Shown here: in pieces, positions 20,860 through 55,766 of the stretch
Layout: the number at the start of each line of letters is the position of its first letter
How positions within the stretch are numbered: the first letter of the stretch is position 1
Assembly: GCA_014360685.1 (NCBI GenBank)
Contig: JACIXB010000016.1
Coordinates: 124,263-188,262 of the forward strand
Length of the DNA: 64,000 bases
Reading direction: 5' to 3'
DNA from: Actinomycetota bacterium
GTDB lineage: Bacteria; Actinomycetota; Geothermincolia; Geothermincolales; RBG-13-55-18
Program-made: the position numbers and the translations under genes
Notes under the pieces: generated by a model
What the model saw: the letters and a program-made list of their open reading frames with translations, nothing else
The model's database searches: none
What the model was told of the DNA's origin: nothing

Positions 20860-20865
20860 CGGAGG

Positions 20866-24532: not shown

Positions 24533-24590
24533 GGCCGCGGGGCGCGGCGGAAGATTCCGGAAAGATGACGGGTTTCCGCAAGGAGTATAG

Positions 24591-27249: not shown

Positions 27250-27263
27250 GGATGACGGATGAC
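27250..27263 (+). promoter_or_regulatory. tandem direct heptamer GGATGAC-GGATGAC upstream of the subtilase start
   Basis: Read directly at 27250-27256 and 27257-27263. It overlaps a 7-bp inverted repeat, CCGTCAT-gg-ATGACGG. Confidence 0.3.
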
Positions 27264-27362
27264 GTCCCGGGACGGGCCGCGGCGCGGCGTGAAATCCCCG
27301 GCGCGGGTGAGGGCCGGGAGGAAGGAGGACCGGAAGGCGTGAAGTCACGGGGAGATGCAGGC

Positions 27363-29897
27363 ATGGGAACCGCGAGGGCGATGACAGTGGCGCTGGCCGC
27401 CTTTTTCCTGGTCGCCGTCATCCTCCTGCCCGCCGGGGGGTCATGGGGGGCCGCTCGCGGGATCCACCTTCCGGCCGGGAAAGAGGAAAGCCCACTCGCG
27501 GCGAAGGCGGCCCTCCTCGAGAACCTGGACCCCGTGCATTATCCGACCGGCTCCTACATTCCCGGGGAGGTGGTTGTTGAGCTTGCCCAGCCCACCCTCT
27601 CCAGCGCCTCCCGCCTCCTGGTGGCCTTCGCGGCGCTTCTGGGGGAGGACCCCGCGGAGGTGCTGGGACGACTGGCCGCCCAACCCGTGCGCCGGGCCCT
27701 GCGCCTGCGCCTGCGGCCCGGGGTGGGGGAGCTGGAGGCCTGCCGGAAGCTCCTCGCCTCTTCGCTGGTGAGGATCGCGGAGCCCAACCTGGTCTTTCGG
27801 GCCGCGGTCACCGTCCCCGACGACCCCAGGTATCCCCAGCAGTGGAACCTGTGGGACACCTACGGCATCAACGCCGACGCGGCCTGGGACCTGCAGAGGG
27901 GCTCCTCCTCCCTCGCCCTGGCGGTGATCGACACGGGCATCGACTTCTCCCACCCCGACCTGGCGGGCCGCATCCTCTCAAGCGGGTACGACTTCGTGAA
28001 CGGCGACCCCAACCCCGCCGACGACGACGGGCACGGGACCATGATCGCCGGCATCGCCTGCGCCAACTCCGACAACCTCCGGGGGGTGGCGGGCATCGAC
28101 TGGCACGCCGGGATCATGCCCGTAAAAGCGTTGGACAGCAACGGAAAAGGCAGCCTGGACGCGGTGGTCAACTCCATATACCACGCCGCCGACCACGCCG
28201 CCGCAGTGATCAACATGAGCTTCACCTCCACCACCTTCTCCGAGATGCTCCAGGATGCCGTGGAATACGCCCACTCCCGGGGTTGCGTGATGGTCGCCGC
28301 CGCGGGAAACGAGGGGACCACGCAGGTTAACTATCCCGCGGGCCTCACTTACGTCATAGGGGTGGGTTCCATCGGTCCGGACGGGGACCGCTCCTATTTC
28401 TCCAACCACAACACCAGCGTGGACCTGGCCGCCCCGGGAGAGGGCATCTGGAGCACCCGGTTGGGAGGCGGTTACGGCGCGGGCAACGGGACCTCCGAGG
28501 CCGCCCCCCACGTCTCCGCCGCCGCCCTCCTGGTGCGGGCGGAATATCCCGGTTCCACCTCCGAGGAGGTGTGGCGGCGCCTGCGGGACGGGGCCCGGGA
28601 TCTGGGCTCCCCCGGCTACGACGAGGAGTACGGCTGGGGGCTCCTGGACCTCCACTCCTCCCTGCGGGTTCCCCTGGTATCCATCACCTCGCCGGACGAT
28701 TATTCCTATCCCGCCTCGGGGAAGGTCTCCGCCACCGCCTCCTCCGCCAACATCGGGATCAAGTACCTGGAGCTGTGGGTGGACGGGGAACTGGAGGAGA
28801 CCCACACCTTGGCCGTCCCCTCCTCGTCGGTGTCGCATACCTTCGCTTCCTGGGATCTCTCCGACCTGGAGGAGGGGACCCACGAGGTCGCCGTAAAGGC
28901 CATCGATGGTGGCGGGACGGTGAGCGGCGAGATGGCGATCACCGTGTTCCGCAACACCACCCAGCCCCGACCCTCCACCGACTGGTACCTGGCCGAGGGG
29001 TGCACGGCCTTCGGCTTCGAGGAGTACGTCCTGGTGCAGAATCCCAATCCCTCCCCGGTGGAGGTGGAGGTCACCTTCATGCGCTCCGACGGCCCCCTGC
29101 CCCCTCAAACCTTCCCCATGGCCGCCTACTCCCGCCTCACGGTGAACGTCAACGCCCTGGTCCCGGAGGGCGACGTCTCCACCCACGTGCACGCCGACCA
29201 GCCGGTGGTGGCCGAGAGGGCCATGTACTGGAACGGTCGTGACGGCGGGCATGGTGCCATGGGAGTCCCGGCCCCCTCCATCTCCTGGTACCTGGCCGAG
29301 GGGTGCACGGCCTTCGACTTCGAGGAATACGTGCTCATCCAGAATCCCAACCCGGATGCCGCGGTGGTGATCCTCGACTTCAGGCTGCAGAACGGTACCG
29401 GGGCACGAAGGACCATCTCCGTAGGGCCCGGCTCGAGGAGCACGGTCAACGTCGCCGACGTGGTTCCCGGGAACGACGTCTCCGTTTTGGTGACCAGCGA
29501 CATGCCGGTGGTAGCGGAACGGGCCATGTACTGGCCCGCGGGGACGCATGCCCGGGCGGGCGGACACGCCGGCGCCGGTTCCCTCACCGCCGCCGGGACC
29601 TGGTACCTGGCCGAGGGATCCACGGACCACGGTTTTGAGGAGTTCGTGCTCCTGTACAACGCTTCCGGGGATCTTGCCCACGCCCTTCTGACCTTCATGC
29701 GCCCCGACGGGACCACCCATGACTACCCGGTCACAGTGCCCGCGGGAGCCCGCTTTACGGTGTCCGTCAACGAGGCGGATCCCGACCGGGACGTTTCCGT
29801 GCGAGTGACCTCCGACCGCCCCCTGGTGGTGGAAAGGGCCATGTACTGGTCGGGAAGGGAGGGCGGTACGGCGGCCGTAGGGGTCCTCCAACCCTGA
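27363..29897 (+). CDS. secreted S8 subtilisin-family serine protease with an Ig-like domain and three C-terminal ~100-aa repeat domains
   Basis: A signal-like N-terminus from ATG 27363 (MGTARAMTVALAAFFLVAVILLPAGG). Catalytic Asp (VIDTGID), His (DDDGHGTMIAG) and Ser (GTSEAAPHVSAAA). The ORF-track start at 27252 is upstream. Confidence 0.9.
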   Translation: MGTARAMTVALAAFFLVAVILLPAGGSWGAARGIHLPAGKEESPLAAKAALLENLDPVHYPTGSYIPGEVVVELAQPTLSSASRLLVAFAALLGEDPAEVLGRLAAQPVRRALRLRLRPGVGELEACRKLLASSLVRIAEPNLVFRAAVTVPDDPRYPQQWNLWDTYGINADAAWDLQRGSSSLALAVIDTGIDFSHPDLAGRILSSGYDFVNGDPNPADDDGHGTMIAGIACANSDNLRGVAGIDWHAGIMPVKALDSNGKGSLDAVVNSIYHAADHAAAVINMSFTSTTFSEMLQDAVEYAHSRGCVMVAAAGNEGTTQVNYPAGLTYVIGVGSIGPDGDRSYFSNHNTSVDLAAPGEGIWSTRLGGGYGAGNGTSEAAPHVSAAALLVRAEYPGSTSEEVWRRLRDGARDLGSPGYDEEYGWGLLDLHSSLRVPLVSITSPDDYSYPASGKVSATASSANIGIKYLELWVDGELEETHTLAVPSSSVSHTFASWDLSDLEEGTHEVAVKAIDGGGTVSGEMAITVFRNTTQPRPSTDWYLAEGCTAFGFEEYVLVQNPNPSPVEVEVTFMRSDGPLPPQTFPMAAYSRLTVNVNALVPEGDVSTHVHADQPVVAERAMYWNGRDGGHGAMGVPAPSISWYLAEGCTAFDFEEYVLIQNPNPDAAVVILDFRLQNGTGARRTISVGPGSRSTVNVADVVPGNDVSVLVTSDMPVVAERAMYWPAGTHARAGGHAGAGSLTAAGTWYLAEGSTDHGFEEFVLLYNASGDLAHALLTFMRPDGTTHDYPVTVPAGARFTVSVNEADPDRDVSVRVTSDRPLVVERAMYWSGREGGTAAVGVLQP
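28983..29894 (+). repeat. three tandem copies of a ~100-aa domain (WYLAEG...QNPNP...VVAERAMYW)
   Basis: Copies start at the in-frame TGG codons 28983, 29286 and 29601. The same domain recurs in the SpoIID-like protein at 44915-46198. Confidence 0.85.
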
Positions 29898-30289: not shown

Positions 30290-30318
30290 TTTTCAGGGGA
30301 CCAAGGTCTTCATATAAT
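30290..30318 (+). promoter_or_regulatory. candidate promoter TTTTCA-17 nt-TATAAT in an AT-rich island
   Basis: -10 TATAAT at 30313-30318. A second overlapping candidate is TTCATA-17-TATACT (30309-30337). About 200 nt upstream of ATG 30536. Confidence 0.45.
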
Positions 30319-30535: not shown

Positions 30536-33500
30536 ATGCTCAGGACTTCAGTCCAAAAGATTATCAACCTACTGGTAATCATCATCCTCGTGGGCGCCGT
30601 CGCCCTGGGAGCCTTCGCCCTTATCCCCTCCCGGAACCCCGCCGGTCCCCTGATCGGAAAAGTGCTCTCCAGCAAGAAAAACCTCTCCGGCCTCCTGGCC
30701 AACCTGGACCCGGCCGAGCTGGCCGAGGCCCTGCGCGAGAATCCTGACATGATGAGCGACCTCTTCGCCGAGCTGGGTGAGGAGGGAGCGAAACTCATCG
30801 CCCGGCAGGTCAACGAGAGCCCGGAGTTCATATCCGCCCTGCTCTCCGAGTTGGACCCGGCCACCCTGGCCGCGGCTCTCAACGACCCCCGGTCCTCGGA
30901 ATTCACGCTGGCCCTCATGGATTACCTGGACCCGGCGGCCATAGCCTCGGTGGTCAACCGCAGCGGTGATTTCATATCCGCGATGGTGGGCCACCTGGAC
31001 CCCAAGGTGGTCGCGGAGGCGGTCAACGCAAACGGCGATTTCCTGACCGCCTCCACGGCGGCCATGGACCCCCCGGTCCTGGCCCAGGCGGTGAACGAGA
31101 ACGGCCCCTTCGTGACCGCGCTTATCAGCTACCTGGACCCGGCCGTCCTGGCCGCGGCCATGAACGCCAATCCCACCCTGGTCTCCGACCTCATGGGATA
31201 CCTGGACACCGCCGTGGTGGCCCAGGTGGTGAACGCCAACGGGCCCTTCATCTCCGGGCTACTGGGCCACCTGGACCCCCAGGTCCTCACGGCGGGGATG
31301 AACGCCCGACCCACCTTCCTGTCCCGGCTGATGGCCCACCTGAGCCCGTCCACCATAGCTTCGGTGCTCAACGCCAACGCCGATTCCACGTCCGATCTTC
31401 TGGGGTACCTCTCCAACGACCTGCTGCTCAACGTCCTCGCGGTGACGGCGCACGACACGGGATGGATGAACCGCCTCCTGGCGGCGCTCGACCCATCCGT
31501 GCTGGCGGCGGCGGCCAACAACTCCTCCCCCTTCACCTCCGGGCTGCTTCAGGCCCTGGATCCGGCCTGGGTGGCGGGGATCGCCAACGCCCACCCGGAT
31601 TTCGTCTTCCAGGTCATGGACGCCGTCTCCCCCGAGCTGGTGGCCACCATGCTCAACAACGGCACGCTGCTCACCCGGGTATTGCCGTTGGTGGACACGG
31701 CGGCCGTCGGGGCGGCGCTGGGCGAGCACACGGATTTCGTCACCCGGCTCCTGCCCCTCCTGGACCCGGCGTTGGCCGAGATCACCAACGAGGCCCTCAA
31801 GACCAACCCGGACCTGGTGCGCGCGGTGCTGGCCAACCTGGACGGGGCCCAGCTGGCCTCCGCCCTGTCCCAGGCCCCCTCCTTCCTCACCGGGGTGGTG
31901 GAGGGGATCGCCCCGGACACCGTGGCGGCCATGCTCAGGGGATCCAACCAGAACCCGGATCTTTTGATCAACCTCACCAACGCCCTGGATGCGGAGGCCG
32001 TATCCCATGCCCTGGACCTCTCGGGTACCTTCGTGCCCACCCTTCTGGCCCTCCTGCCCGACAACGTGGCCCAGGCGGCGGCGCAGGCCCTGAACGACAA
32101 CCCGGCCCTCCTGGACACGGTCCTCTCCACGGCGGATCCGCAGGTGTTGGCGGGCATCCTTAACTCCGGCGCCGCGGACGCTCTCATCGCCGGGCTCATC
32201 CCCCTCCTCAACGAGGGGATCGCCCAGGCCGTGGCCCAGGGGGTCAACGCGGACGCCGCCCAGCCCACGGAGCAGTCCATGATCAAGTCCCTCATCCTGG
32301 CCACGGATGCCGAGGTCCTGGCCGGGGCCATCAACGACAACCCGGAGTTCGTGGCCGGGGTGCTCCAGGAGCTCTCCACGGAGGCGGCGCGGGCGGTGGC
32401 AGAAGGCATGAACGCCAACCCGGCCACGGCGAGCACCGTGGCCCGCTATCTCAACGGGACCACCAGCCGGCGCATCGCCGAGGCCCTCAACCTCAATCCG
32501 GGGATCATCCGTCCCCTGGTGGAAAACTTGAGCCCCGAGGTGGGAAGGGCCGTCGCCGAGGGCCTCAACCAGAACACCAGCGATCTCAGCCTGCAACTCA
32601 TGGCCAACCTCAACCAGGCGGTGGGAATGGAGATAGCGGCGGGGCTGAACGCCAACCCGGAGCTCATGGAGGAACTCCTCCCCAACCTCAACGGTTACGT
32701 GGGAAGCGAGATCGCCGCGGGTTTGAACGAGAACTCCCTGAACCTGAGCCCCTCCTTCCTGGAGGCCATGCTCTCGGCCACCTCGCCGGATTTCGCCCAG
32801 GTGATAGTGGAGGTCATAAACAGGCCTCCCTACGACATGGACACCTTCCTGGCGCAGCTCATCCTGGGCCTGAACGAGGATACCGCCAGGGCGGCGGCGC
32901 AGGGGTTGAACGCCAACCCCACCCTGGTGGAATACCTGCTGCGCAACCTGGACGGGGAGGCCACGGCGGAGCAGATGAACGCCAACGCCGACTGGACCAT
33001 CGCCCTCATCCAGAACCTCGACCCCGACGCCCTGGCCGACGCCATAAACGGCGCCCTCTCAACGGCGGGGGGCAGGAACTTCGTGACCGCGCTGCTCCAG
33101 GGCCTGGACGGGGCCATCGTGGGCAGGGTTTTGAGCAACAACCCGCAGCTCACCGAGGAGCTGTTGAAACGCGCCGGCGGTTGGGATCCCGACGGGCCCG
33201 GGCCCAAGACTTCCATCCACTTGGGGACCACCTTGAAAGACCTGCTCAAGGACGCGGGTGCCGGCGATCCGAGCGGGTTCCTCACCACCCTGCTTAACGG
33301 CCTGGACGCCGACGTGATCATCAGGGTGATCAACAACGCGACGGGCATAAGGAATACAAAAGGGGATCTGAACGATCCGGCCAACCGTGGTCCTTACTAC
33401 GACGATCCGAGGCTGAAATACCGGCCTTATACCTTCCTGGACGTGACCTGGTTTAAGGTCTGGATGCAGGCGAACATCCTGCCCATTCCTATGGCGGGCT

Positions 33501-33541
33501 GGAGCAAGATCGAGGGCGATGCGGAACGCTACGACTGGTGA
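30536..33541 (+). CDS. membrane-anchored giant tandem-repeat protein, paralogue 1 (unknown family)
   Basis: 1001 aa. One N-terminal TM helix, about 37 tandem 23-26-aa repeats, and a 59-aa non-repeat tail ending ...WFKVWMQANILPIPMAGWSKIEGDAERYDW. Third-position GC is high throughout. Confidence 0.85.
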   Translation: MLRTSVQKIINLLVIIILVGAVALGAFALIPSRNPAGPLIGKVLSSKKNLSGLLANLDPAELAEALRENPDMMSDLFAELGEEGAKLIARQVNESPEFISALLSELDPATLAAALNDPRSSEFTLALMDYLDPAAIASVVNRSGDFISAMVGHLDPKVVAEAVNANGDFLTASTAAMDPPVLAQAVNENGPFVTALISYLDPAVLAAAMNANPTLVSDLMGYLDTAVVAQVVNANGPFISGLLGHLDPQVLTAGMNARPTFLSRLMAHLSPSTIASVLNANADSTSDLLGYLSNDLLLNVLAVTAHDTGWMNRLLAALDPSVLAAAANNSSPFTSGLLQALDPAWVAGIANAHPDFVFQVMDAVSPELVATMLNNGTLLTRVLPLVDTAAVGAALGEHTDFVTRLLPLLDPALAEITNEALKTNPDLVRAVLANLDGAQLASALSQAPSFLTGVVEGIAPDTVAAMLRGSNQNPDLLINLTNALDAEAVSHALDLSGTFVPTLLALLPDNVAQAAAQALNDNPALLDTVLSTADPQVLAGILNSGAADALIAGLIPLLNEGIAQAVAQGVNADAAQPTEQSMIKSLILATDAEVLAGAINDNPEFVAGVLQELSTEAARAVAEGMNANPATASTVARYLNGTTSRRIAEALNLNPGIIRPLVENLSPEVGRAVAEGLNQNTSDLSLQLMANLNQAVGMEIAAGLNANPELMEELLPNLNGYVGSEIAAGLNENSLNLSPSFLEAMLSATSPDFAQVIVEVINRPPYDMDTFLAQLILGLNEDTARAAAQGLNANPTLVEYLLRNLDGEATAEQMNANADWTIALIQNLDPDALADAINGALSTAGGRNFVTALLQGLDGAIVGRVLSNNPQLTEELLKRAGGWDPDGPGPKTSIHLGTTLKDLLKDAGAGDPSGFLTTLLNGLDADVIIRVINNATGIRNTKGDLNDPANRGPYYDDPRLKYRPYTFLDVTWFKVWMQANILPIPMAGWSKIEGDAERYDW
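30704..33361 (+). repeat. in-frame array of 23-26-residue repeats (69-78 nt period), paralogue 1; boundaries approximate
   Basis: For example LDPAAIASVVNRSGDFISAMVGH / LDPKVVAEAVNANGDFLTASTAA / MDPPVLAQAVNENGPFVTALISY. Later units resemble LNQAVGMEIAAGLNANPELMEELLPN. Confidence 0.85.
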
Positions 33542-33571
33542 TGAGCGCGACTACTATGAAGAACTGGGAAG

Positions 33572-36472
33572 ATGTTGTTGCGTAAGCCGGTGCAGATAGT
33601 GGTCAACCTGGTGGTCATCCTCCTCCTTGTGGGGGTGGTCGCCGGAGGAGTGGTCATGCTCCTCCCGGTCAAGGGACCCATGGGGACCTTACTGGGGAAG
33701 ATGGCCTCCCAGCGGCAGACCTTGGCCGGCATCATCGAAGGGCTGGATCCCCACGAGGTGGCCAAGGCCATAAGCGAGAACCCGGAATTCCTCTCCCAGC
33801 TCCTGGCCGAGCTTGAGGACCCGGAGAACCTGGAAGCCACGGCCCGGGCGGTGAACGAGCACCCCGACTTCCTGCTGGCCCTGGTATCGGAGCTCGATCC
33901 CGAGCCGGTGGCCCGGGCGGTGAACGAGAACGGGGAGCTCATCTCCAGGATACTCCCCCTCCTGGACGTGCAGGCCCTGGCCGACACCGTCAACCAGAGC
34001 GGGGACTTCACCGCTTCCCTTTTTCCGGAGCTCGATCCGGAGGTCATCGCCCGGGTGGTGAACGAGAACGGGCCCTTCCTGACCGCGCTGGTCTCCTACC
34101 TCGACCCGGCGGTGGTGGCCGCTTCCATGAACGCCAACCCGGGTTTCACCTCCCAACTTCTCTCCCACTTGGACGCGGCGGTGATCGCCTCGGCGGTGAA
34201 CGCCAACGGGAGCTGGATCTCCGCCCTCCTCTCCATGCTGGATCCCGCTCCCACCGCCCAGGCCATCAACGGGAACCCGACCTTCCTCTCCAACCTCCTG
34301 CGCAACCTCAACCCCAGGGTCCTCGCCTCGGCGGTGAACGCCAACGGCTCCTTCCTGGCGGGGATGATGCGCTACATGGACCCCCAGGGCCTGATCACCG
34401 CCATCAACCAGAACAAGTCATTCCTAGTGGGGGTGGTCGACCGCATGGACCCGAGCGCCTCGGCGCGCATAGCCTCGGACCAGAAGTTTCTCACCCGTAT
34501 CCTGGGGCTCCTCAACCCGGCACCCGTGGCCGCCGCCCTGAACGGCAACGCCGATTTCCTCAAGGCGGTGATGGATCAGCTCGACCCCCGGGGCCTGGCG
34601 GCATCCCTTAACGGCACGGGGGACAACGTGGCGGCCATCGTGAGTTACTTGAGGGACGATTACATCACCTACCTGGCCAACGACGAGGAATTCCTCAACC
34701 AGGTCATCCCCCTCATCGACCAATCCGCCCTGGCCGGGGCCCTGAACGCCAACGCCGGGTTCATCGCCTCCCTGCTGGCCGATCTCCCGGCTTCGCTGGG
34801 GGAGGCGGCGGCCCTGGGCCTGAACCTGGCCCCGGATTTCATCGAACGCATGATCGCCAGCTCGGATCCCGCCTTTTTGGCCGGGGTGCTGGAGAGCGCG
34901 GGCAACTTCCTGACCTCCCTTCTGGCCAACCTGGACGAGAGCGTGGCCCAGGCGGCGGCTGAAGGGGTGAACAACAACCCGGACCTGGTGGACGCCGCGC
35001 TGTCCAACCTGGACGTGGACGGTCTCCTGGATATCCTTGAGGCCACGACCGGGTTCACCGAGGAACTCTCCGCCCATCTTTCCCCCCTGGCGGCGGCGGG
35101 TATAGCCGTGGGCTTGAACAACAACATGAATTTCCTGGCCACCCTGATAGGGGAGCTGGATGCCCACGGGCTGGCCACCCTGCTCTCGCTGCACCCGGAT
35201 GTCACGCAAGAGCTCTCCTCTTACCTGGATTCCCGTTTCGCCGGAGCGGTCGCCGAGGGGCTTAACCGGGGCGGCACCTTCCTCGCTCAACTCATCTCCT
35301 ACCTGGACCCGGCGGTCATAGCCCAGGCCCTGGACGTGAACCCCGCCCTCACCCGGGACCTCCTGGCCAACCTCGACGGAGACCTGGGGCGGGCGGTGGC
35401 CGAGGCGGTGAACGAGGACCCCTCCTTCCTGGTGGAGGTGCTGGCCAACCTCTCCTCCGCCACCGGGCAGGCCATGGCCGAGGGGACCAACCTCAACACC
35501 AGGGGGTTTTTGGAGAACCTCGTCGCCAACCTCGACGAGGACGTGGCCGCCGCGGCGGGTGAGGCCATCGGTTACGGGGACCCCATGTTCCTGGTCCAGT
35601 TGGTGGGCAACCTCAAGGCGGATACCGGGGTGAGGATGGCCCAGGCCGCCAACGCCAACCCGGGGCTCATGGAGGTGATCATGATGAACCTGGCCCCGGA
35701 AACGGCGCGGGCGCTGGCCGAGGGCCTGAACTTGAGCACGAGCCAAAACCCAGGTTTCCTCAACAACATCATAGCCAACCTGAACGAGGACACCGGGAGG
35801 GCCGTGGGCAGGGGCCTGAACGCCATGGCCGCCGGGGGCAAGGACTCGGCGCTTTACATAACCTTGGCCGGAACGCAGGACCACACCGTGGAGGCCATAG
35901 CCGACGCACTGGAGGGGAACACCTCCTTCCTGGACGCCCTGATCAAGAGCCTGGACGCCGCTTCCCTGGCCGCCGGGGTTAACGCCGGCATCGACGCCGC
36001 CTCGGGTCCCGTCCCTGGCCAGGCACCGGGCTATTTCCTGCGCAACCTGCTGGCCAACCTGGACGCCGCCGTGCTGGACCGGGTGACCGACGAGGCGGGG
36101 ATGGACCTAGCCAGGAGCCTGCTGGGCGCGAATCCCGGCCCCAGCCTCCTGCGGGGGGACCTGGTGGCCGACGCCCTGGAGGGCGGCCTGGGGAACCTGG
36201 TGAGCGAGATCCTCTCCGAGCTGGATGCCTACGAAACGTTGCAGACCATGAACCAGGCCATGCCCTATTCCGAGCAGTTACTGGTGGACATGATGGCCAC
36301 CAACCCGGACCTGGCGGTGGTGCTGGGGGATGCCATCACCAACAGCGTGAATTCAGGCGATGGTCTTTTCCATCACCTGGGGATCGGGGTGCGACTTAGA
36401 TTGAGATTTATCTTCGAGATTGACATTAAGGGTTGGGGGTTCATAACCAGTGCTGCCGGAGGAGTATGGTGA
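33572..36472 (+). CDS. membrane-anchored giant tandem-repeat protein, paralogue 2
   Basis: 966 aa. It starts 30 nt after paralogue 1 and has the same architecture. The tail is ...GLFHHLGIGVRLRLRFIFEIDIKGWGFITSAAGGVW. Confidence 0.85.
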   Translation: MLLRKPVQIVVNLVVILLLVGVVAGGVVMLLPVKGPMGTLLGKMASQRQTLAGIIEGLDPHEVAKAISENPEFLSQLLAELEDPENLEATARAVNEHPDFLLALVSELDPEPVARAVNENGELISRILPLLDVQALADTVNQSGDFTASLFPELDPEVIARVVNENGPFLTALVSYLDPAVVAASMNANPGFTSQLLSHLDAAVIASAVNANGSWISALLSMLDPAPTAQAINGNPTFLSNLLRNLNPRVLASAVNANGSFLAGMMRYMDPQGLITAINQNKSFLVGVVDRMDPSASARIASDQKFLTRILGLLNPAPVAAALNGNADFLKAVMDQLDPRGLAASLNGTGDNVAAIVSYLRDDYITYLANDEEFLNQVIPLIDQSALAGALNANAGFIASLLADLPASLGEAAALGLNLAPDFIERMIASSDPAFLAGVLESAGNFLTSLLANLDESVAQAAAEGVNNNPDLVDAALSNLDVDGLLDILEATTGFTEELSAHLSPLAAAGIAVGLNNNMNFLATLIGELDAHGLATLLSLHPDVTQELSSYLDSRFAGAVAEGLNRGGTFLAQLISYLDPAVIAQALDVNPALTRDLLANLDGDLGRAVAEAVNEDPSFLVEVLANLSSATGQAMAEGTNLNTRGFLENLVANLDEDVAAAAGEAIGYGDPMFLVQLVGNLKADTGVRMAQAANANPGLMEVIMMNLAPETARALAEGLNLSTSQNPGFLNNIIANLNEDTGRAVGRGLNAMAAGGKDSALYITLAGTQDHTVEAIADALEGNTSFLDALIKSLDAASLAAGVNAGIDAASGPVPGQAPGYFLRNLLANLDAAVLDRVTDEAGMDLARSLLGANPGPSLLRGDLVADALEGGLGNLVSEILSELDAYETLQTMNQAMPYSEQLLVDMMATNPDLAVVLGDAITNSVNSGDGLFHHLGIGVRLRLRFIFEIDIKGWGFITSAAGGVW
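33743..36355 (+). repeat. in-frame array of 23-26-residue repeats, paralogue 2; boundaries approximate
   Basis: For example LDPEPVARAVNENGELISRILPL / LDPEVIARVVNENGPFLTALVSY / LDPAVVAASMNANPGFTSQLLSH. Confidence 0.85.
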
Positions 36473-36490
36473 CGGGCGGGTGATGGAGCC

Positions 36491-39409
36491 GTGTTTCTGA
36501 TGAAGAAGCCCGTACAATTGGTGGTCAATGTAGCGGTTATCGTTCTTCTGGCCGCCTTCCTGGTGGTGGGAGGGATCATGGTCCTGCCCTCCCGGAGCCC
36601 CCTGGGATCCCTCCTGGGGAAGGTGGCCTCCGACGTCGAGCTGCTCTCCAACATGCTCAAATACACCGAACCCCGGGCGGTGGCCGAGGCCCTCAACGAG
36701 AACCCGGACTTCGTCTCCCGGCTTCTTAAGGCCATGGTGGAGGAGGGGACGGTGGCGGTCGTGGCCCAGGTGGTCAACGAAAACCCGGACTTCCTTTCCG
36801 CGGCCATGCCCTACCTGGACCCGGAGGCCGTGGCCTACGTGGTCAACAGCTCAGGAGATCTGCTGGCGGGGCTCCTGGGCTACCTGGACCCCCAGGTCGT
36901 GGCCCAGGTGGTCAACGAGAACGGTGCCTTCCTGGCCGAGCTTCTGGGCTATCTCGACGCCGAAGCCCTGACCGCGGGCATCAACCGGAACGGGCCCTTC
37001 CTCTCCGCGGTGATGTCCTTCCTGGACCCGGCGGTGGTGGCCGGCGTCATCAACCAGAACGGACCCTTCCTAACCTCGCTCATGGGGCTTTTGGATCCGG
37101 CGGGCACGGCGCGGGTGGTCAACGAGAACGGGGCTTTTCTCTCGGCCCTGGTCTCCTACCTGGATCCGGTGGTCGTGGCCCAGGTGGTCAACGAGAACGG
37201 GAACATGTTGGCCGCCTCCCTGGACTACATAGAACCCGCGGTGGTGGCCGGCGTCATCAACCAGAACGGCCCCTTCCTGGCCTCGGTCATGCGCTACCTG
37301 AACCCCGCGGTTCTGGCCGGTGCCCTCAATGCCAACGTGTCCTCGGCGGTGAGGATAATCCGCTCCATCTCTCCCGAATACCTGGCGGATATCCTCAATT
37401 CCACCACCATGCTCTCCGCGGCGGCTCCCTACATGCAGCCCGTCCCCGTGGCCGGGGCCCTCATGTCGGCCACCGATTTCGTGAACGACCTTTTGAACTT
37501 CCTGGACCCCGCCGTGGTGGCCGATCTCATCAACTCCTCCATCGACCTGGTGCGGAGGACCACCGACTACGTGGACCCCGGCTTCGTGGCCGACCTCATC
37601 TCCAACAAGGCCATGCTCTCCCGGGTGCTGGGGCTCTTGGACGTCAACGTCCTGGCCGACGTGGTCAACGCCAACCCGGGTATGACCGCCGACCTCCTAC
37701 CCCTGCTGGAACCCCAGGTGGGGGAGGGCCTGGCGGCGGGCCTGGGGGCCAACCCGGACCTCATCGTGGAGGCCCTGCAGGCCCTCGATCCGGCCATCGT
37801 GACCAACGCCCTCAACGCCCACCCGGAGATCTCCGAGGAGCTGTCCAAGCTGCTACCTCCTTCGCTGGGGGTCCCCGTGGCCCAGGGGCTCAACCAGAAC
37901 CCGGAGTTCATCGGGGCGCTCCTGGCCGCGCTGGACCCCGTGCCCATAGCTGCGGCCCTCTCCGCGCACACCGATTTCCTCTACGATCTGTTGTCCGGGA
38001 TCTCGCCCCCCGTGGCCGCGGCCATGGTGGAGGGGTCCAACCGCAACCCCGATTTCCTGGCTTCCCTTATCTCCCACCTGGATCCGGAGACCGTCGCGGG
38101 GGCAGTGAACGCCAACCCGGATTTCCTGCGCACCCTCCTCTCCGACCTGGAGGGAAGCCTGGGGACGGCGGCGGCCCAGGGCATGACGCGGGATTTCCTG
38201 TCCGCCCTCATCGGGGGCCTGGACCCGGCGGTGGTCGCCCAGGCGGTGAACGCCAACCCGGATTTCCTGCGTGACTTCCTGGCCAACGCCAGTTCCCTGA
38301 CCGCCGAGTACCTGGCCAAGGGAATCAACACCCACGTGGCCTCGCATCCGCTGGGACAGGACCTCATATCCGTGCTGGTGACCAATATCAGCGAGGATAC
38401 GGCCGCGGCCCTGGCTCAGGGCATCAACCGGAACGTGGCTGCGAACCCGGCCGACAACCTACTCACCGGGCTCCTGGCCAACACCACGGGAGCGGTGGGA
38501 GTGGCCCTGGCCAATGGATTGAACACCAACCCGTCTTTCATCAGGGTCCTCATCTCCAACATCGATCCGGTGGTGGGAGTGGCCGCCGCCTACGCCTTGA
38601 ATTACTCCTGCCAGCGGGCCCAGGCGGATCCCCAGTACCAGTTCCTGCGCAAGCTCTTGGCCAACCTGGGGCCCGAGGTGGCGGAGGCTTCCGCCGACGG
38701 CCTGGCGAATAACCTTGACCCGGAGGGAATGGTCTCCGCCCTGGTGACCAACCTCGACCCCGGCCTGGTGGCCCCCCTCATCGCCGCCGCGGTGAACGCC
38801 AATGCCGCCTCGCAGGCCATGATCCAGGCGGTGGTCTCCCAGCTGGACGCCACCACCGCCCAGACCATAGCCCTGGCCTTGAACGCCAACCCGGGCATGA
38901 CCTCGGTTCTGTTGCAGTCCCTGGATCCCGCCGTGGTGGCGCGGTTGCTGAACGACAACCCGTCCTTTCTCTCCGCCCTCATATCCAGCCTGGACGGCTC
39001 GGTGATCGCGGAGGCCGTCAACCAGGAGTATGCCATGCATCCCGGAAACTCCCTTCTGGAGAGGCTCCTTCCCCTCATGAGCGGCGCGGACCTGGCGGAG
39101 CTGCTCAACGACTACGGCTACCAGTTCCTGGTGGACCTGCTTTCCCACCTGGACGGCACGGCGGTCGCCCAGGCCCTTAACACGCCGGCCGGGGAGACCT
39201 TCCTCACCGAACTGCTGGTGTTCATGGATCCCGACCTGGTGGTGGACCTGGTCAAGGCGGAGTCCGACTGGCCCAACGGCGGGGCCGTCAAAGAGCTGGT
39301 GATCCACATCTTTGTGTACAGGTCAGAATTGATCGGGCTTGGCGACTGTCAGTTCCGGGTGATGGATGCAGGGGTCTACATACCTCCCAACTGGCCTCCC
39401 TTCCCCTGA
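36491..39409 (+). CDS. membrane-anchored giant tandem-repeat protein, paralogue 3
   Basis: 972 aa. It starts 18 nt after paralogue 2 (GTG 36491; ATG 36500 is an alternative). The tail is ...VKELVIHIFVYRSELIGLGDCQFRVMDAGVYIPPNWPPFP. Confidence 0.85.
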   Translation: MFLMKKPVQLVVNVAVIVLLAAFLVVGGIMVLPSRSPLGSLLGKVASDVELLSNMLKYTEPRAVAEALNENPDFVSRLLKAMVEEGTVAVVAQVVNENPDFLSAAMPYLDPEAVAYVVNSSGDLLAGLLGYLDPQVVAQVVNENGAFLAELLGYLDAEALTAGINRNGPFLSAVMSFLDPAVVAGVINQNGPFLTSLMGLLDPAGTARVVNENGAFLSALVSYLDPVVVAQVVNENGNMLAASLDYIEPAVVAGVINQNGPFLASVMRYLNPAVLAGALNANVSSAVRIIRSISPEYLADILNSTTMLSAAAPYMQPVPVAGALMSATDFVNDLLNFLDPAVVADLINSSIDLVRRTTDYVDPGFVADLISNKAMLSRVLGLLDVNVLADVVNANPGMTADLLPLLEPQVGEGLAAGLGANPDLIVEALQALDPAIVTNALNAHPEISEELSKLLPPSLGVPVAQGLNQNPEFIGALLAALDPVPIAAALSAHTDFLYDLLSGISPPVAAAMVEGSNRNPDFLASLISHLDPETVAGAVNANPDFLRTLLSDLEGSLGTAAAQGMTRDFLSALIGGLDPAVVAQAVNANPDFLRDFLANASSLTAEYLAKGINTHVASHPLGQDLISVLVTNISEDTAAALAQGINRNVAANPADNLLTGLLANTTGAVGVALANGLNTNPSFIRVLISNIDPVVGVAAAYALNYSCQRAQADPQYQFLRKLLANLGPEVAEASADGLANNLDPEGMVSALVTNLDPGLVAPLIAAAVNANAASQAMIQAVVSQLDATTAQTIALALNANPGMTSVLLQSLDPAVVARLLNDNPSFLSALISSLDGSVIAEAVNQEYAMHPGNSLLERLLPLMSGADLAELLNDYGYQFLVDLLSHLDGTAVAQALNTPAGETFLTELLVFMDPDLVVDLVKAESDWPNGGAVKELVIHIFVYRSELIGLGDCQFRVMDAGVYIPPNWPPFP
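36662..39262 (+). repeat. in-frame array of 23-26-residue repeats, paralogue 3; boundaries approximate
   Basis: For example LDPQVVAQVVNENGAFLAELLGY / LDPAVVAGVINQNGPFLTSLMGL / LDPVVVAQVVNENGNMLAASLDY. Confidence 0.85.
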
Positions 39410-39979
39410 TACCAGGCTCTTCCTTATGGCATATCCGATCCCCGGCTCCGGAAGCAGGGAATTCTTTTCACTAAAGAACAATTCCACGGACAAGGTAAAT
39501 CGTTATCCTCGGGAATTCTGCCCTTCCACCCACATTCTTTTATCCGCCGAAACACGTTTGCGTTGGAGGGCCCATGAATTTTCCCAACTCGTGCCGTTTT
39601 GCCGTCATGATGTGGAAGGGCGAAGGGCTTTCGGTTGCCGGCGCCCGTTGTAAGGGCCGGGTATATAGGCCGGTTTGACTGCCCCATTCCGATTGTACCA
39701 ATCGCTGGACGAAGTCCGCCCATATCGTGGCCAAGCTTATTGCCTTATATGGATGGATATTGTCCGGGGTTTCCCTTAGAAATACTATCGGGAAAAGAAT
39801 TCACATTTTCAGTCAAGTATAGGCATCCCGAAAATGCGGGTCTCTTGTGGAGGACTCCGGGAGAATGGAACCTCTTCGCCGTTTGCCATACCATCTTCAC
39901 GATGGGGTTTGATCCGGAGATGAGAGGGGATTCCTTGCGCTGCCTTTGGTTCGCGCAGGGTATGGTATCCACCGGATGT

Positions 39980-39985
39980 TATAAT
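39980..39985 (+). promoter_or_regulatory. candidate -10 TATAAT 6 nt upstream of the sensor-kinase ATG (leaderless geometry)
   Basis: ggatgtTATAATtttcccATG with no Shine-Dalgarno. This is the same -10-to-ATG spacing as at murA. Confidence 0.35.
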
Positions 39986-39991
39986 TTTCCC

Positions 39992-42175
39992 ATGAAAGGA
40001 GAACTCTCCCTTTTTATCACCACCGCCTCGGGGCTGCTGAGTCTGGCGATCGGTATCTTCGTGCTCGTCAGGAGACATCGGCGGCTGGCCAACATCCTCT
40101 TCTTCGCCATGTCCTTCTTCCTCGCCCTATGGGCGTTGGGAGACGGCCTGACCATAGCCTCCTCCACCCTCAAGGCCAAGATTTTCTGGACCCGTTTCCA
40201 GGGAATCGGAGAGCTTCCCCTCGTCCCCACCTTCCTGCTGCTGGCCCTGTATTTTCCGCGCACCAGGGCTTTCATGCACGACTGGAGGAAGGCCTTCGCC
40301 GTAATCGCAGCCATATACGCCCCTTTCCTCCTGAGCCTTTTCTTCCTGTATGCCACCGGGATCATATATTCCGATTACTTTTTGGGCGACAACATCCACG
40401 ACCTGGAGGTTGCACGCACCCCTTATTTCTGGTTGCTTACCGGTCTCGGTTTCGCCATGGTGTTGCTGGCCATGCTCTTCCATTTCCTGGAGAGCCGGAG
40501 GAGTGATTCACTGCATCGGCGGCGGGGACTGGTGTGCCTCGCCCTGGCGCCCCTTCCCATGCTCTTGGCCAACCTGGTTCAGAACCTGGGATGGAGCGGT
40601 AGCGTAACCACCCCCCAGGCGGGCATACTCTTCGTGGGTTTGTTGGGCTACGGCATCATGCGGCACGGCCTTTTCCTCGATTTCCGTTCCGCCTCCAAGA
40701 GGGCCCTAGCCCATTCCCTGGCCATGGCCCTCAGCTTGTCCGCATGCCTTCTTTTACTCTTCCTGCTGCGCTATGGGCTCAAGGTGGAACTGGGATGGTT
40801 CGGGATGGCCCTCTTCCTGGTTTGCGCAACCCCCTTGCTCGTAACCTACCCGGCGGTGGTGAGATGGGCCGACAACCTCGTCTCGCGGCGGTTATATCGC
40901 CGCGAAGGCCGTGCGGGTACCGCCCTGGAGGGGCTGAGCAGGTCCATCCGCACGGTAAGGGATCTTCCCGAGCTGGCCGCCGATGTGGCCAGGGTGGTCA
41001 GGGAATCCCTGGAACTGGCGTCCTGCGCCCTCATGGTTCGCGAGAACGATTTTGACCGCTACCGGGTTATCGGGTTCGCCTCTCACCCGGAACACATGGC
41101 CCGCGAACATGTGGGGGTAGTGGAGGCGGGGATGTTCATGCACCCCTGGAGGGACTCCTACAGCTTCGATACTCCCGGGGGGCAATTTACCAGTTATTGG
41201 CAGGTGGGCAAGAGGATTGAACGGGGCGATTGCCGGATCGAGTACCTCAGCCTGGGCGTGCTGCGCATCCACGATGGCGGCGGTGTGGTGAGGGAATCCC
41301 TTTGGGAAGAGAAGGGAGCGGGAGAGGCCATATCCATGCCCCTGGAGGTGGGAGGGGAAAGGGTGGGTTTCCTCTGGCTGGGAGGAAAGATGGACGGTTC
41401 GCGCTTCAGCCTCGAGGAACTGGACCACCTGGTGGCCCTTTCAGCCCAGGTAGCGGTTTCCCTGCTCAACGCGCGTCTGGTGCAGGAAATGACGGACCGG
41501 AACCGGCGCTTGCGCGAACTGGCACAGAAAGTCTCCTTTGCCCAGGAAGAGGAAAGAATACGCATCTCCAGGGAATTGCATGACGGATTGGCTCCTTTCT
41601 TCCTGGACATCCTCTACGCCGTGGATATGCTGGAGCGGGAATCCGGGAAGGCCATGGAATTAGCCGGCGGATTGGCGGAGGTACGGGAACGGGCCCGCCG
41701 GGGACTCGGGGAACTGCGCCGGCTGATCTCCGACCTGCGCCCCTCCTCCCTGGAGGTGCTGGGATTAAGGGATTCGTTGGCTTCCTACCTGGAGAGGTTC
41801 GGCGCCGAAAGCGGCCTGGAGGTGAGTTTCCGATGTCGGGGTCCCCTTCGCGGTCTGGATCCCCTGGCGGAGATAACCTTGTTCCGCGTGGCCCAGGAGG
41901 CTTTGTGCAACGTGGCCCGGCATGCCCGCGCCCGCAGGGTAAGGATGTCGCTCGAGGAGCGTGACGGCCGGGTTTACCTGGAGGTGGAGGACGACGGGGT
42001 GGGCTTCGTGCTCGAAGAAGTTACGCGGAGAAACCCCCTCGGGCAGAGCCTGGGTTTGAAGAACATGGAGGAACGAGCCGAGCTGGCGGGAGGCAAGCTC
42101 GTCGTGCAGACCGGACCGGGGAGAGGAACGAGGGTAAGCCTGCTCGTCCCCAAGGCCGCGGGCCGCCCGTCTTAA
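39992..42175 (+). CDS. sensor histidine kinase: multi-TM N-terminal sensor, GAF-like region, HisKA_3, HATPase_c
   Basis: About 9 predicted TM helices from MKGELSLFITTASGLLSLAIGIFVLV... H-box ISRELHDGLAP. ATPase N/G boxes (QEALCNVARHA...EDDGVGF...GLKNMEERAELAGG). ATG 39962 is an alternative start. The ORF-track start at 39635 lies in low-GC, non-coding-looking sequence. Confidence 0.85.
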   Translation: MKGELSLFITTASGLLSLAIGIFVLVRRHRRLANILFFAMSFFLALWALGDGLTIASSTLKAKIFWTRFQGIGELPLVPTFLLLALYFPRTRAFMHDWRKAFAVIAAIYAPFLLSLFFLYATGIIYSDYFLGDNIHDLEVARTPYFWLLTGLGFAMVLLAMLFHFLESRRSDSLHRRRGLVCLALAPLPMLLANLVQNLGWSGSVTTPQAGILFVGLLGYGIMRHGLFLDFRSASKRALAHSLAMALSLSACLLLLFLLRYGLKVELGWFGMALFLVCATPLLVTYPAVVRWADNLVSRRLYRREGRAGTALEGLSRSIRTVRDLPELAADVARVVRESLELASCALMVRENDFDRYRVIGFASHPEHMAREHVGVVEAGMFMHPWRDSYSFDTPGGQFTSYWQVGKRIERGDCRIEYLSLGVLRIHDGGGVVRESLWEEKGAGEAISMPLEVGGERVGFLWLGGKMDGSRFSLEELDHLVALSAQVAVSLLNARLVQEMTDRNRRLRELAQKVSFAQEEERIRISRELHDGLAPFFLDILYAVDMLERESGKAMELAGGLAEVRERARRGLGELRRLISDLRPSSLEVLGLRDSLASYLERFGAESGLEVSFRCRGPLRGLDPLAEITLFRVAQEALCNVARHARARRVRMSLEERDGRVYLEVEDDGVGFVLEEVTRRNPLGQSLGLKNMEERAELAGGKLVVQTGPGRGTRVSLLVPKAAGRPS

Positions 42176-42184: not shown

Positions 42185-42871
42185 GTGGAAGGGGAAATCC
42201 GCCTGGTGGTGGTGGACGATCACCTCATCGTGCGCATGGGGATAAGCAACCTCCTCAAGGGGACGGAGGGGATATGCCTGGTGGGCGAGGCGGACTGCGG
42301 AAAAGCCGCCATCCAGGCGGCCCGCGCCCTGCGTCCCGATGTCATGCTCCTGGACATAAAACTTCCGGACATGAGCGGCATCGAGGTGATAAGGAACCTC
42401 AAGTCCGACCCGGAGACCTCGCATGTCCAGGTGGTGATCCTCACCGTGTACGACGACATCGAGATCGCGTCGGAGGCCATCCGGGCGGGGGCCATGGGTT
42501 ATATACTCAAGGACCTCTCGCGGAAGGAGCTCCTCGACGCCATTCGAGCCGCTCACATGGGCACCCCCCTGGTCTCCGACAGCGTGGCCAGGAAGCTGGT
42601 GAGCACCCTGTTCCGCACCGAGCGCCTCCCCGGGGCTCCCCTGGGTCCGGAAAAGGGGGAGAGGGCGGAGGAGGAACAGCCGGGGCTGACGGAAAGGGAA
42701 TACGAGGTCCTCAGGCTGGTAGCCAAGGGATACAGCAACAAGACCGTGGCCCGCGAGCTCTCCATCAGCCTGAGCACCGTGAAAACCCACCTCCGACACA
42801 TTTTCCAGAAACTGGGCGTGGAAGACCGCGCCCAGTTGATAATCAAGGCCATCAAGGAAGGCATAATCTGA
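42185..42871 (+). CDS. NarL/LuxR-family two-component response regulator
   Basis: A receiver domain (VVVDDH...DVMLLDIKLPDMSG...) plus a C-terminal LuxR helix-turn-helix (LTEREYEVLRLVAKGYSNKTVARELSISLSTVKTHLRHIFQKLGV). It starts 9 nt after the kinase stop. Confidence 0.9.
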   Translation: MEGEIRLVVVDDHLIVRMGISNLLKGTEGICLVGEADCGKAAIQAARALRPDVMLLDIKLPDMSGIEVIRNLKSDPETSHVQVVILTVYDDIEIASEAIRAGAMGYILKDLSRKELLDAIRAAHMGTPLVSDSVARKLVSTLFRTERLPGAPLGPEKGERAEEEQPGLTEREYEVLRLVAKGYSNKTVARELSISLSTVKTHLRHIFQKLGVEDRAQLIIKAIKEGII

Positions 42872-43090
42872 CCCCGGCCCCCCATGGAGGGAACGAGGGA
42901 TTCCCACGCTCGAGATCGCCGTGCTCTGGTTCGGGGGCACCACACGGGTCAGAAACAAGTGCCCAAGTCGGAAAGGTGGACGCCGGCTTGCGGAGATGCT
43001 ATATTATGGCAAACCTCGACGATGGGGCGGCAAAGGGAAAGGGCGTCAAATTCGTGTACATGGGTGGTCGGATTTCACCGTTTTCGGTAG

Positions 43091-43408
43091 GTGGTCGTGC
43101 GAGGAATACGGACCGACGCCGGTGAACCCTCTGAAGAGGAGCTTTCTTCCCTGCGGAGGATCAAGAAGGAGATAGCCGATTTCTTCGCGGCCAATCCCTT
43201 CCTCCTGGTCAGTGAGGACTGGCTGGCATCCCTTCTATGCAGGCCGGTTCGCCTGGTCGAGGCGGCGGTACGGGAACTGATGGCCGAAAGCGTGCTTGAA
43301 AAGCGCCAACATTACCTGGCGCTGGATTCGGCGGAGGGGCGCTTGGCCCACTTCTTGGCGCCGCATTCGGCGGAGGAGGATCGCGGGGGTTTTCCCGTCC
43401 AGGATTAA
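43091..43408 (+). CDS. hypothetical small protein (105 aa), possibly winged-helix-like
   Basis: The ORF has moderately coding-like codon bias. ...IKKEIADFFAANPFLLVSEDWLASLLCRPVRLVEAAVRELMAESVLEKR... I recognise no family, and the start is uncertain. Confidence 0.35.
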   Translation: MVVRGIRTDAGEPSEEELSSLRRIKKEIADFFAANPFLLVSEDWLASLLCRPVRLVEAAVRELMAESVLEKRQHYLALDSAEGRLAHFLAPHSAEEDRGGFPVQD

Positions 43409-43756
43409 AAAAGAGTTCATCGATATCCCCCTTCCACCGGTGGATCCTCATCAGGCTTTGCCTTGAAGGCGGTGCGCCAATCGCCATGCGGCTCAGCTTT
43501 TAAAACGGGAGATTTGGAGGTTAGGAAAGAAGGAGAGACCGCCCATAATTTCGTTGAAACGGGTAGGAACCGGGCGAGAAGGGGCGGGAGACCTTGCCGG
43601 GGAAGGGCATGTTACGTCCGGTTCCCGTGACGTCCCGGATGATAACCAGGTCACTGTCCGCACGCGGAACTTTCAACCCAAAGGAAAACAAGCCCGTGAT
43701 ATACGAAAGGGAGGGTAGGCGGCCATTCTATTGGATATTTCAACTTTCTGTTAAAT

Positions 43757-43785
43757 TTGATAATTATTGTTAAAATAGTTATATT
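43757..43785 (+). promoter_or_regulatory. candidate promoter TTGATA-17 nt-TATATT in a strongly AT-rich island
   Basis: -35 at 43757-43762, exact 17-nt spacer, -10 at 43780-43785. About 230 nt upstream of the SpoIID-like ATG. Confidence 0.55.
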
Positions 43786-55744: not shown

Positions 55745-55766
55745 AGTGAATACGTCTACGCCGTGG

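Follow-up and report, generated by a model that had tools for sequence, protein, structure and literature searches.

The locus considered here raises the question of what three neighbouring genes may do whose products, of about 1000 residues each, are composed almost entirely of one short helical repeat. The genes, designated A, B and C, lie in tandem in a stretch of 64,000 nucleotides (the window) of contig JACIXB010000016.1 from an uncultured hot-spring bacterium of the Actinomycetota (Candidatus Solincola, class Geothermincolia). An earlier note had described them as collinear paralogues, and the open reading frames (ORFs) as well as the gaps of 30 nt (A-B) and 18 nt (B-C) given there are all exact. 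The reading put forward here, tentatively and with the balance tipping slightly against it, is that the three genes are transcribed together and that their products assemble into a single heteromeric strut of fixed length in the cell envelope, an alpha-solenoid oriented N-in/C-out. We infer topology and function alike; such a strut or spacer would probably be placed outside the cytoplasmic membrane of Geothermincolia-type Actinomycetota.

The repeat unit and its predicted fold

To judge from codon usage and substitution rates, A, B and C are real genes under purifying selection. Their GC content at third codon positions (GC3) is 0.88-0.89, as in the neighbouring genes, and the ratio of nonsynonymous to synonymous substitution rates (dN/dS) against two relatives amounts to 0.17-0.21 for A, 0.14-0.15 for B and 0.15 for C. 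This is as low as the value for the response regulator encoded downstream, and below those of the adjacent S8 protease and histidine kinase. Spurious or non-coding ORFs are ruled out by these figures together with conservation in more than 20 loci; the case considered in the earlier note, of ORFs with neither homologues nor expression, does not apply, since homologues exist and are under purifying selection. The single operon proposed there is supported because the order A-B-C is invariant in at least 17 loci, and a scan of the A-B and B-C gaps revealed a terminator-like site in neither. A tRNA-Trp (CCA) predicted by ARAGORN within gene B is probably a false positive, as the Rfam tRNA model gives it no support; the same model does confirm a tRNA-Leu near the end of the window.

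Each protein starts with a short basic N-terminus and one conserved transmembrane helix, followed by about 850 residues of repeats. Over residues 50-450, BLOSUM autocorrelation at a lag of 23 yields z-scores of 15.4 (A), 15.6 (B) and 18.7 (C) against shuffled sequences, and a hidden Markov model (HMM) of the repeat locates 22-27 units per protein, with a spacing of mostly 23 residues. The logo compiled from 163 units of 23 family members reads L-D-P-a-V-[LIV]-A-x-[AV]-[VIL]-N-x-N-[GP]-x-F-[LVI]-x-x-L-[LMVI]-x-x, the two asparagines being present in 98% and 83% of the units, respectively, and matches the 23-residue unit and rough consensus of the earlier note. The conserved positions are core or capping residues, with no obvious binding surface. 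At the DNA level, Tandem Repeats Finder detected a 69-bp period in C.

The distal half is organized differently. Between residues 450 and 900, autocorrelation peaks at lags of 26 (z up to 6.7) and 49 (z up to 7.6), reflecting the alternation of 26- and 23-residue units in a 49-residue super-repeat. Of the distal unit of about 26 residues claimed earlier, the period therefore holds, but the plain array of 26-mers does not. In a similar way, the some 870 residues of uninterrupted repeats described in the earlier note are indeed a tandem array, yet an interrupted one: in A, 23-residue units extend to about residue 360 and the 23+26 super-repeat prevails beyond about residue 410, with irregular stretches at about residues 290-320, 485-510 and 560-590, and the final 80-120 residues are not repeats. 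The tail of C carries the conserved pattern V-Y-I-P-P-x-x-P-P-x-P. The composition, correctly described before as rich in Ala, Leu, Val, Asn, Asp and Pro, comprises 15% Leu, 15% Ala and 7.3-7.8% Asn, with essentially no Cys.

The AlphaFold2 model of full-length A, computed on a 17-sequence alignment, consists of alpha-helices throughout, about 70 in succession and each of 8-13 residues, with predicted local distance difference test (pLDDT) values of 77-88 at residues 60-330 and of 80-94 at residues 590-870. In its distal half, 13- and 10-residue helices alternate, matching the alternation of 26- and 23-residue units. A fragment of 238 residues, made up of ten 23-mers, gave a pLDDT of 83 and a predicted template-modelling score (pTM) of 0.77. 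The helix-turn-helix solenoid postulated in the earlier note is thus borne out at the level of models, with about 35 two-helix repeats in a solenoid-type array rather than disorder. With the full A model, Foldseek retrieved only generic HEAT/ARM solenoids (CAND1, importins, UTP10/20; TM-scores of 0.13-0.21, E about 1e-7); with the 10-repeat fragment, there was no match at E<=1e-3 in either the PDB (best E=0.055, TM-score at most 0.46) or BFVD, and hence no significant match of the confident fragment to a characterised family in this structure search, which the earlier note had proposed. By class, A, B and C would be alpha-solenoids, as indicated by the tandem two-helix units, the pTM of the fragment and the top Foldseek matches, all of which are solenoids; the modelled unit corresponds to about half a HEAT repeat and is without a close structural neighbour. 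An LRR reading of the unit is ruled out by the helical hydrophobic spacing (i, i+1, i+4, i+5) and by the lack of strands in the AlphaFold2 models.

Distribution, triplication and coupled length

The family is very rare. A cut-off of E<=1e-3 gives 284 representatives among 1.84 billion proteins and one of E<=1e-30 gives 55, most of the sequences being fragments, and word-indexed searches of 5.8 billion sequences returned 11-12 clusters, the second search giving mainly A-type orthologues. The hosts are uncultured Actinomycetota, in which the genes always occur as the A-B-C triplet. Searches with tblastn gave no match in 72,556 plasmids or 50,697 phages; this result and the housekeeping character of the chromosomal region (TilS, FtsH, folate and NAD genes, a V/A-ATPase operon, enolase, pyruvate kinase and FtsB) rule out that the genes stem from a phage, a plasmid or another mobile element. 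None of the exact A, B and C sequences occurs among about 15 billion proteins searched, the index of which appears to miss such low-complexity proteins: this word-indexed search never returned matches of 94% identity, although two JGI contigs (L012 and L013; related loci are designated by L numbers) encode such relatives. The A subunit of the V/A-ATPase of the window, unlike A, B and C, is present in that collection; it is 100% identical to a protein from a metagenome-assembled genome (MBC7253574.1) and falls into the same 90% cluster as Candidatus Solincola tengchongensis, a member of the class Candidatus Geothermincolia. Four further matches of the profile search (P0088, P0132, P0139 and P0147) represent other repeat types (RI-like LRR, a different 23-mer, acidic low-complexity sequence) and are not members of the family. 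P0132, an unrelated protein of 1300 residues, combines Laminin_G_3 with another undescribed 23-residue repeat, T-L-D-P-x-x-L-x-G-S-x-L-x-S-P-x-A-L-S-A-I-A. In the searchable literature, no publication on the A-B-C family was found.

All-against-all BLAST best hits and a neighbour-joining tree resolve the proteins into three clean clades, A, B and C, which agree in the genomes they contain and very nearly in their topology; identity is 36-76% between orthologues and about 30% between paralogues. Because the three orthologue clades are congruent, the triplication is, on the evidence of the tree, ancient and predates the sampled lineages. Within the 15 triplets compared, the lengths of A, B and C correlate with r=0.94-0.99, and the length differences map to the same mid region in all three proteins. 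This region comprises 220, 212 and 210 residues in A, B and C, respectively, of the window as well as of L001, L005 and L006, compared with 121, 114 and 114 in L003 and 125, 126 and 115 in L010, while L009, the sister of L010, has 324, 317 and 314. The length step of about 100 residues equals two 49-residue super-repeats.

Gene conversion as the cause of the equal lengths is excluded, because the identity between paralogues is not raised in the mid region (0.23-0.39) and A, B and C remain apart in a tree computed from this region alone. The alignments indicate instead that an insertion or deletion of the same size is fixed independently in each paralogue, and this in at least three lineages. 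Such length coupling is the strongest functional clue and suggests that A, B and C must be equal in length, as one would expect of proteins that are aligned in register alongside each other or that bridge one distance. In a wider sense, the coupled length evolution of three ancient paralogues may serve as a signature, readable from sequence only, of a length-critical assembly of fixed stoichiometry.

Membrane anchor, gene neighbourhood and possible role

The N-terminal hydrophobic helices quoted in the earlier note are present in all three proteins. A Q-x3-N pair within the helix is invariant family-wide, the spacing from this Gln to a conserved Pro is exactly 23 residues throughout the family, small residues recur at fixed positions, and the helix is followed by the motif P-[SVA]-[RK]-x-P-x-G-x-[LM]-[LI]-G-K (P-S-R-N-P-x-G-P-L-I-G-K in A). 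Given these constraints, the transmembrane helix is, by its conservation pattern, more than a generic anchor. Polar Q/N pairs within transmembrane helices commonly drive helix association.

With regard to topology, the ambiguity of the flanking charges pointed out earlier is real, with a net charge of +1.3 ahead of the helix and of +1.6 in the first 15 residues behind it. On the other hand, every member has one or two conserved basic residues in front of the hydrophobic helix, in the manner of Sec signal anchors, and the composition of the repeat domain is unlike that of every cytoplasmic protein in the window. The three proteins have an isoelectric point of 4.1-4.2, with 2.4-3.2% Arg, 4-5% Glu, 7.3-7.8% Asn and next to no Cys, whereas their cytoplasmic neighbours have 7-15% Arg, 8-12% Glu and 1-4% Asn; the secreted S8 and SpoIID proteins are intermediate, and A, B and C lie beyond them on the same axes. 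Together with the placement in an operon with signal-peptide proteins and an anti-sigma-like gene layout at locus L007 (see below), these features make an extracytoplasmic repeat domain, with the N-terminus inside and the C-terminus outside, fairly probable. Both the membrane tether and the rod shape are predictions.

The survey of related loci proposed in the earlier note showed A, B and C always together, in an order that never varies, within a block that is conserved in about 25 genomic and metagenomic loci. It is composed of MurA, an S8 subtilase/DUF5719 protein, A, B, C, a propeller/TIG protein, a DrrA-type ABC ATPase with an ABC-2 permease, a kinase, a LuxR regulator and, farther on, a SpoIID/DUF5719 protein and enolase; the propeller/TIG gene and the ABC pair are present in some loci only. 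In at least 10 loci, the triplet is found together with the kinase/regulator pair and the ABC-2 exporter. Kinase and regulator follow it in the window and in L003, L005, L008, L010, L012-L014, L016, L018, L020, L022 and L023; the ATPase and an ABC2_membrane permease stand directly after it in L003, L005, L008, L010, L016, L018, L020, L022 and L025, and in the window and its closest relatives, L012-L014, C and the kinase gene have no ABC-2 genes between them. The fourth gene, found after C in L001, L008, L009, L019 and L023 and absent from the window, starts 7-18 nt past C where measured and encodes a signal-peptide protein of 1066-1790 residues with a Reg_prop beta-propeller and TIG/IPT domains; the protein of L008 has additional ASRT-like domains.

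In the divergent triplet of L007 and L027, a gene for an extracytoplasmic function (ECF) sigma factor is located directly upstream of the first paralogue, which has its N-terminus extended by about 100 residues, a helical part and then a Pro/Gly-rich linker, ahead of the transmembrane helix. The extension shows a coding-like GC pattern over the codon positions, is absent from the proteins of the window and resembles an anti-sigma factor in its layout; it gave no match in Pfam, anti-sigma models included. Tad pilus genes occur near the divergent triplets of L004 and L007; those adjoining L007 encode TadA/B/C-like and CpaE-like proteins and a prepilin peptidase.

The features are compiled in Table 1. 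As to the neighbours in the window, the kinase ORF comprises 846 residues from its TTG start, compared with 780 and 761 in the longest orthologous ORFs of L012 and L014; its first ~100 residues look non-genic, and the true start is probably downstream. Between the regulator and the SpoIID gene, about 1.1 kb hold only short ORFs without a Pfam match, the equivalent gap in L012 measuring about 1.8 kb. DUF5719, an actinobacterial domain of unknown function, is shared by both flanking secreted proteins, and no paper on it was found. Farther away are a V/A-type ATPase operon, here in an actinobacterial genome, and, downstream of FtsB/DivIC, a divergent pair of genes for an ECF sigma factor and a putative DUF5667 anti-sigma protein.

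Table 1. Features of the A-B-C region and of related loci (positions refer to the window unless a locus is named; residues refer to the protein concerned)
Feature	Position	Strand	Details
Gene A	30536..33541	+	position-1 paralogue, 1001 residues, ATG start; orthologue clade A
Gene B	33572..36472	+	position-2 paralogue, 966 residues, ATG start
Gene C	36491..39409	+	position-3 paralogue, 972 residues, GTG start
A, invariant Q-x3-N plus transmembrane helix	30554..30628	+	residues 7-31
B, transmembrane helix	33596-33664	+	residues 9-31
C, transmembrane helix	36518-36586	+	residues 10-32
A, helical-hairpin repeat array	30704..33175	+	about residues 57-880; autocorrelation, repeat HMM, AlphaFold2
A, non-repeat C-terminal module	33176..33538	+	residues 881-1001; aromatic/proline-rich, paralogue-specific; low-confidence model
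B, repeats			about residue 58 to about 925 (approximate)
C, repeats			about residue 61 to about 925 (approximate)
C, 69-bp DNA period	36757-37320		Tandem Repeats Finder
Promoter-like site	30290..30318	+	TTTTCA-17-TATAAT, 10/12; consensus match only; AT-rich patch, 638-nt gap upstream of A
Secreted S8 subtilase, Big_7 + DUF5719	27252..29897	+	signal peptide; upstream; syntenic in most Geothermincolia-type loci
Histidine kinase	39635..42175	+	HisKA_7TM, GAF, HisKA_3, HATPase_c; downstream neighbour
LuxR/NarL-type response regulator	42185..42871	+	
Stretch between regulator and SpoIID gene	42872-44014		short ORFs only (e.g. 43091-43408, 105 residues)
Secreted SpoIID + DUF5719 protein	44015..46201	+	signal peptide; conserved end of syntenic block
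V/A-type ATPase operon	16796-25253		subunits I, C/AC39, A, B, D, small ORFs
ECF sigma factor and putative DUF5667 anti-sigma protein	54150-55843	-	divergent pair
tRNA-Trp (CCA) candidate in gene B	35470-35546	-	ARAGORN; probably false positive
tRNA-Leu	63686-63770		confirmed by Rfam model
Propeller/TIG gene, L001	13017-16214		
Propeller/TIG gene, L009	13226-16813		
Propeller/TIG gene, L008	13226-18598		
Propeller/TIG gene, L019	6139-9942		
Propeller/TIG gene, L023	13237-17631		
N-terminal extension of first paralogue, L007	7317-7640		also in L027

An envelope strut could be assembled from these elements as follows. Each protein would insert N-in/C-out as an uncleaved signal anchor, and the three transmembrane helices would associate via the Q/N pair and the small-residue motifs, such that three thin solenoids would stand side by side in register, or at least across the same gap. 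If one of them gained or lost two 49-residue super-repeats, the other two would then have to follow. About 35 hairpins at some 9-10 Å each would give a rod of about 30-35 nm, an estimate from typical solenoid geometry, which would be enough to cross a Gram-positive wall, and the size classes would differ in steps of about 4 nm. The paralogue-specific aromatic/proline modules at the C-termini might form the distal tip. The rod would work with the neighbouring secreted S8 protease, the beta-propeller/TIG protein and the SpoIID-type wall hydrolase, and it might be controlled by, or report to, the adjacent kinase/LuxR pair with its seven-transmembrane (7TM) sensor and the ABC-2 exporter. A more specific version, a heterotrimeric "envelope ruler" on three interacting transmembrane helices that sets or exactly spans the thickness of the envelope, its length evolving in quanta of about 4 nm (two 49-residue super-repeats) in all subunits together, is doubtful.

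Several points weigh against the strut. The flanking charges leave the topology undecided, the C side being slightly more positive, and the sole sequence similarities to solved proteins lead to the cytoplasmic FliG and, weakly, to MgtE_N. A known wall-binding or sorting motif was not detected in A, B or C. The length coupling could mean a shared span and not direct contact, the heteromeric complex is deduced from sequence, the rod length is taken from typical geometry, and the transmembrane region and the C-terminal module of A (the last ~120 residues) were modelled at pLDDT <50. Furthermore, MurA, S8 and SpoIID may adjoin the triplet merely through conservation of the block in one lineage, and the more distant triplets of L003, L006 and L007 are without MurA/S8 upstream.

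Several of the alternatives overlap with the strut on location. One alternative is a cytoplasmic scaffold, in which N-out/C-in solenoids would line the inner face of the membrane as a cytoskeleton-like structure or docking platform resembling FliG and MgtE_N. Most known alpha-solenoids are indeed cytoplasmic, the best PDB sequence matches are to FliG (E=0.013), weak MgtE_N matches occur in the proteins of the window, a distant family fragment, P0041, scores 42 bits with the MgtE_N model, and there is slightly more Lys/Arg after the transmembrane helix than before it. However, the FliG and MgtE_N scores are below or near noise, Arg at about 3% and Asn at 7.5% contrast with 7-15% and 1-4% in the cytoplasmic proteins of the window, and the basic residues before the helix in the style of a Sec signal anchor, the operon with signal-peptide proteins and the extension beside the ECF sigma gene in L007 all argue for the opposite orientation, so that such a scaffold appears unlikely. 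An extracytoplasmic sensor or co-receptor, by contrast, would bind an envelope ligand or sense stress by means of its solenoids and signal to the 7TM kinase/LuxR pair or, in L007, to the ECF sigma factor. It draws on the kinase and regulator that follow the triplet in the window and 12 named loci, and on the sigma gene and N-terminal extension of L007/L027, but the kinase has its own 7TM sensor domain, the extension of L007 matches no anti-sigma family, the conserved repeat positions form core and caps with no obvious binding surface, and three subunits of about 1000 residues that change in coupled steps of about 100 residues are more suggestive of a structural span than of a ligand pocket; this role is accordingly judged improbable.

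A surface fibril, adhesin or coat, with rods forming a brush for attachment or protection independently of wall architecture, would account for the acidic, Cys-free composition rich in Asn, Ala, Thr and Ser that is typical of surface proteins, for the variable C-terminal tips, for the fusion of distant repeat relatives to lectin-like (Laminin_G_3) or phage collar domains, and for the Tad pilus genes near the divergent triplets of L004 and L007. Strong purifying selection (dN/dS 0.14-0.21) with no sign of diversification is at odds with it, the fixed stoichiometry of three subunits and the coupled lengths are unexpected for adhesins, and no known anchoring or adhesin domain was detected in Pfam or NCBIfam; its likelihood is about as small as that of the sensor. 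It remains to consider the ABC-2 genes directly after the triplet in nine named loci, which could suggest that the solenoids serve this transporter as a conduit or scaffold in the export of a polymer, in analogy to the TPR solenoids that guide exopolysaccharides across the periplasm of Gram-negative bacteria. Yet the window and L012-L014 are without ABC-2 genes between C and the kinase, the block contains no glycosyltransferase or polymerase genes, and DrrA-type ABC-2 pumps beside HisKA_3/LuxR pairs are usually stress or efflux modules, which renders the conduit the least probable of these proposals.

Should the envelope strut prove correct, it would offer a testable way into the envelope architecture of the deep-branching, uncultured Candidatus Geothermincolia, and protein length could be compared with envelope thickness across short, medium and long lineages. 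The narrower ruler, if true, would amount to a structural principle hitherto without description in bacterial envelopes, with an equally undescribed helical repeat of 23 residues as its building block.

Comparison with known repeat proteins

The earlier note had not recognised the unit as any named repeat, and Pfam and NCBIfam gave no significant match. In Pfam (hmmscan, E<=1), A, B and C produced only noise-level matches, among them one to the XPC-binding model (26.6 bits versus a cut-off of 26.4) that is a chance match to a four-helix motif; NCBIfam and the PADLOC models of anti-phage defence gave no match. HEAT/ARM, TPR, PPR, Sel1, LRR and pentapeptide models were found neither in Pfam at E<=1 nor in NCBIfam, and the same two collections revealed no SLH, LPXTG or S-layer domain, the C-termini also lacking the combination of LPXTG and transmembrane helix. 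Taking Pfam, NCBIfam, PDB and Foldseek together, no characterised repeat, S-layer or adhesin family was matched significantly. An unusually short helical repeat (23 residues, or 23 and 26 in alternation), undescribed so far and with a confident model that has no neighbour in the PDB, would thus be added to the catalogue of alpha-solenoids and should be of interest to structural biology and repeat-protein design.

The nearest named repeat is the leucine-rich repeat variant (LRV; PF01816/PF25591; 24-26 residues), which is absent from the list in the earlier note. It shares with A, B and C the short tandem two-helix units, with the pattern D-P-x-x-V-[RA]-x-A-V-A-x-N-P-x-x-x-x-x-L-x-x-L, and differs from the A-B-C unit with its 23 residues and almost invariant N-x-N-[GP] turn. 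The family profile matches the LRV protein P0167 (167 bits against the LRV model) with E=2.7e-9 among 1.84 billion proteins, and hhalign aligns the family with LRV over 267 columns with a probability of only 62% (E=7.5e-5), a similarity that in both cases may be driven by repeats and composition. A, B and C have no LRV match in Pfam at E<=1, and 1LRV, the right-handed superhelix of alternating alpha and 3-10 helices from Azotobacter vinelandii, is missing both from the PDB profile search at E<=1 and from the 50 best Foldseek matches of the fragment. LRV proteins are not known to occur as membrane-anchored triplets.

FliG and MgtE_N (PF03448, PF14841; 4FHR, 1LKV) likewise form superhelical arrays of alpha-helices only, in which the helix pattern L-x-P-x-x-x-A-x-x-L recurs; FliG is the best PDB sequence match. 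Their domains are cytoplasmic, of about 100 residues and with 3-5 helical pairs, in contrast to some 35 pairs in A, B and C, whose scores stay under the family thresholds (18.1 and 21.1 bits versus 25.9 for MgtE_N, and 11 versus 25 for FliG_M) and whose context is neither flagellar nor that of a Mg2+ transporter, with no flagellar or MgtE genes in the window or related loci. Both the FliG/MgtE_N and the LRV leads are weak and inconclusive, and we take them for a resemblance in design (L-D-P, helix, N-x-N-P, helix), not for membership.

HEAT/ARM proteins such as CAND1, importin-beta and UTP10/20 likewise stack antiparallel helix pairs into a long solenoid, but their repeats of 37-47 residues have helices about twice as long as those of A, B and C, and the low TM-scores of the A model and the unmatched 10-repeat fragment separate the two. 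HEAT/ARM proteins are cytosolic or nuclear and are not known to form membrane-anchored paralogue triplets. A functional analogy, and only that, may be drawn to Braun's lipoprotein Lpp, a membrane-anchored helical rod whose length sets or matches an envelope distance: as a 58-residue homotrimeric coiled coil of diderms, Lpp determines the width of the periplasm by its length, whereas A, B and C are solenoids that differ from one another, comprise about 1000 residues each and occur in presumably monoderm hosts, and a role in envelope width would follow by analogy. The repeat unit, the architecture and the organisation as a triplet are new; the fold class, the alpha-solenoid, is known.

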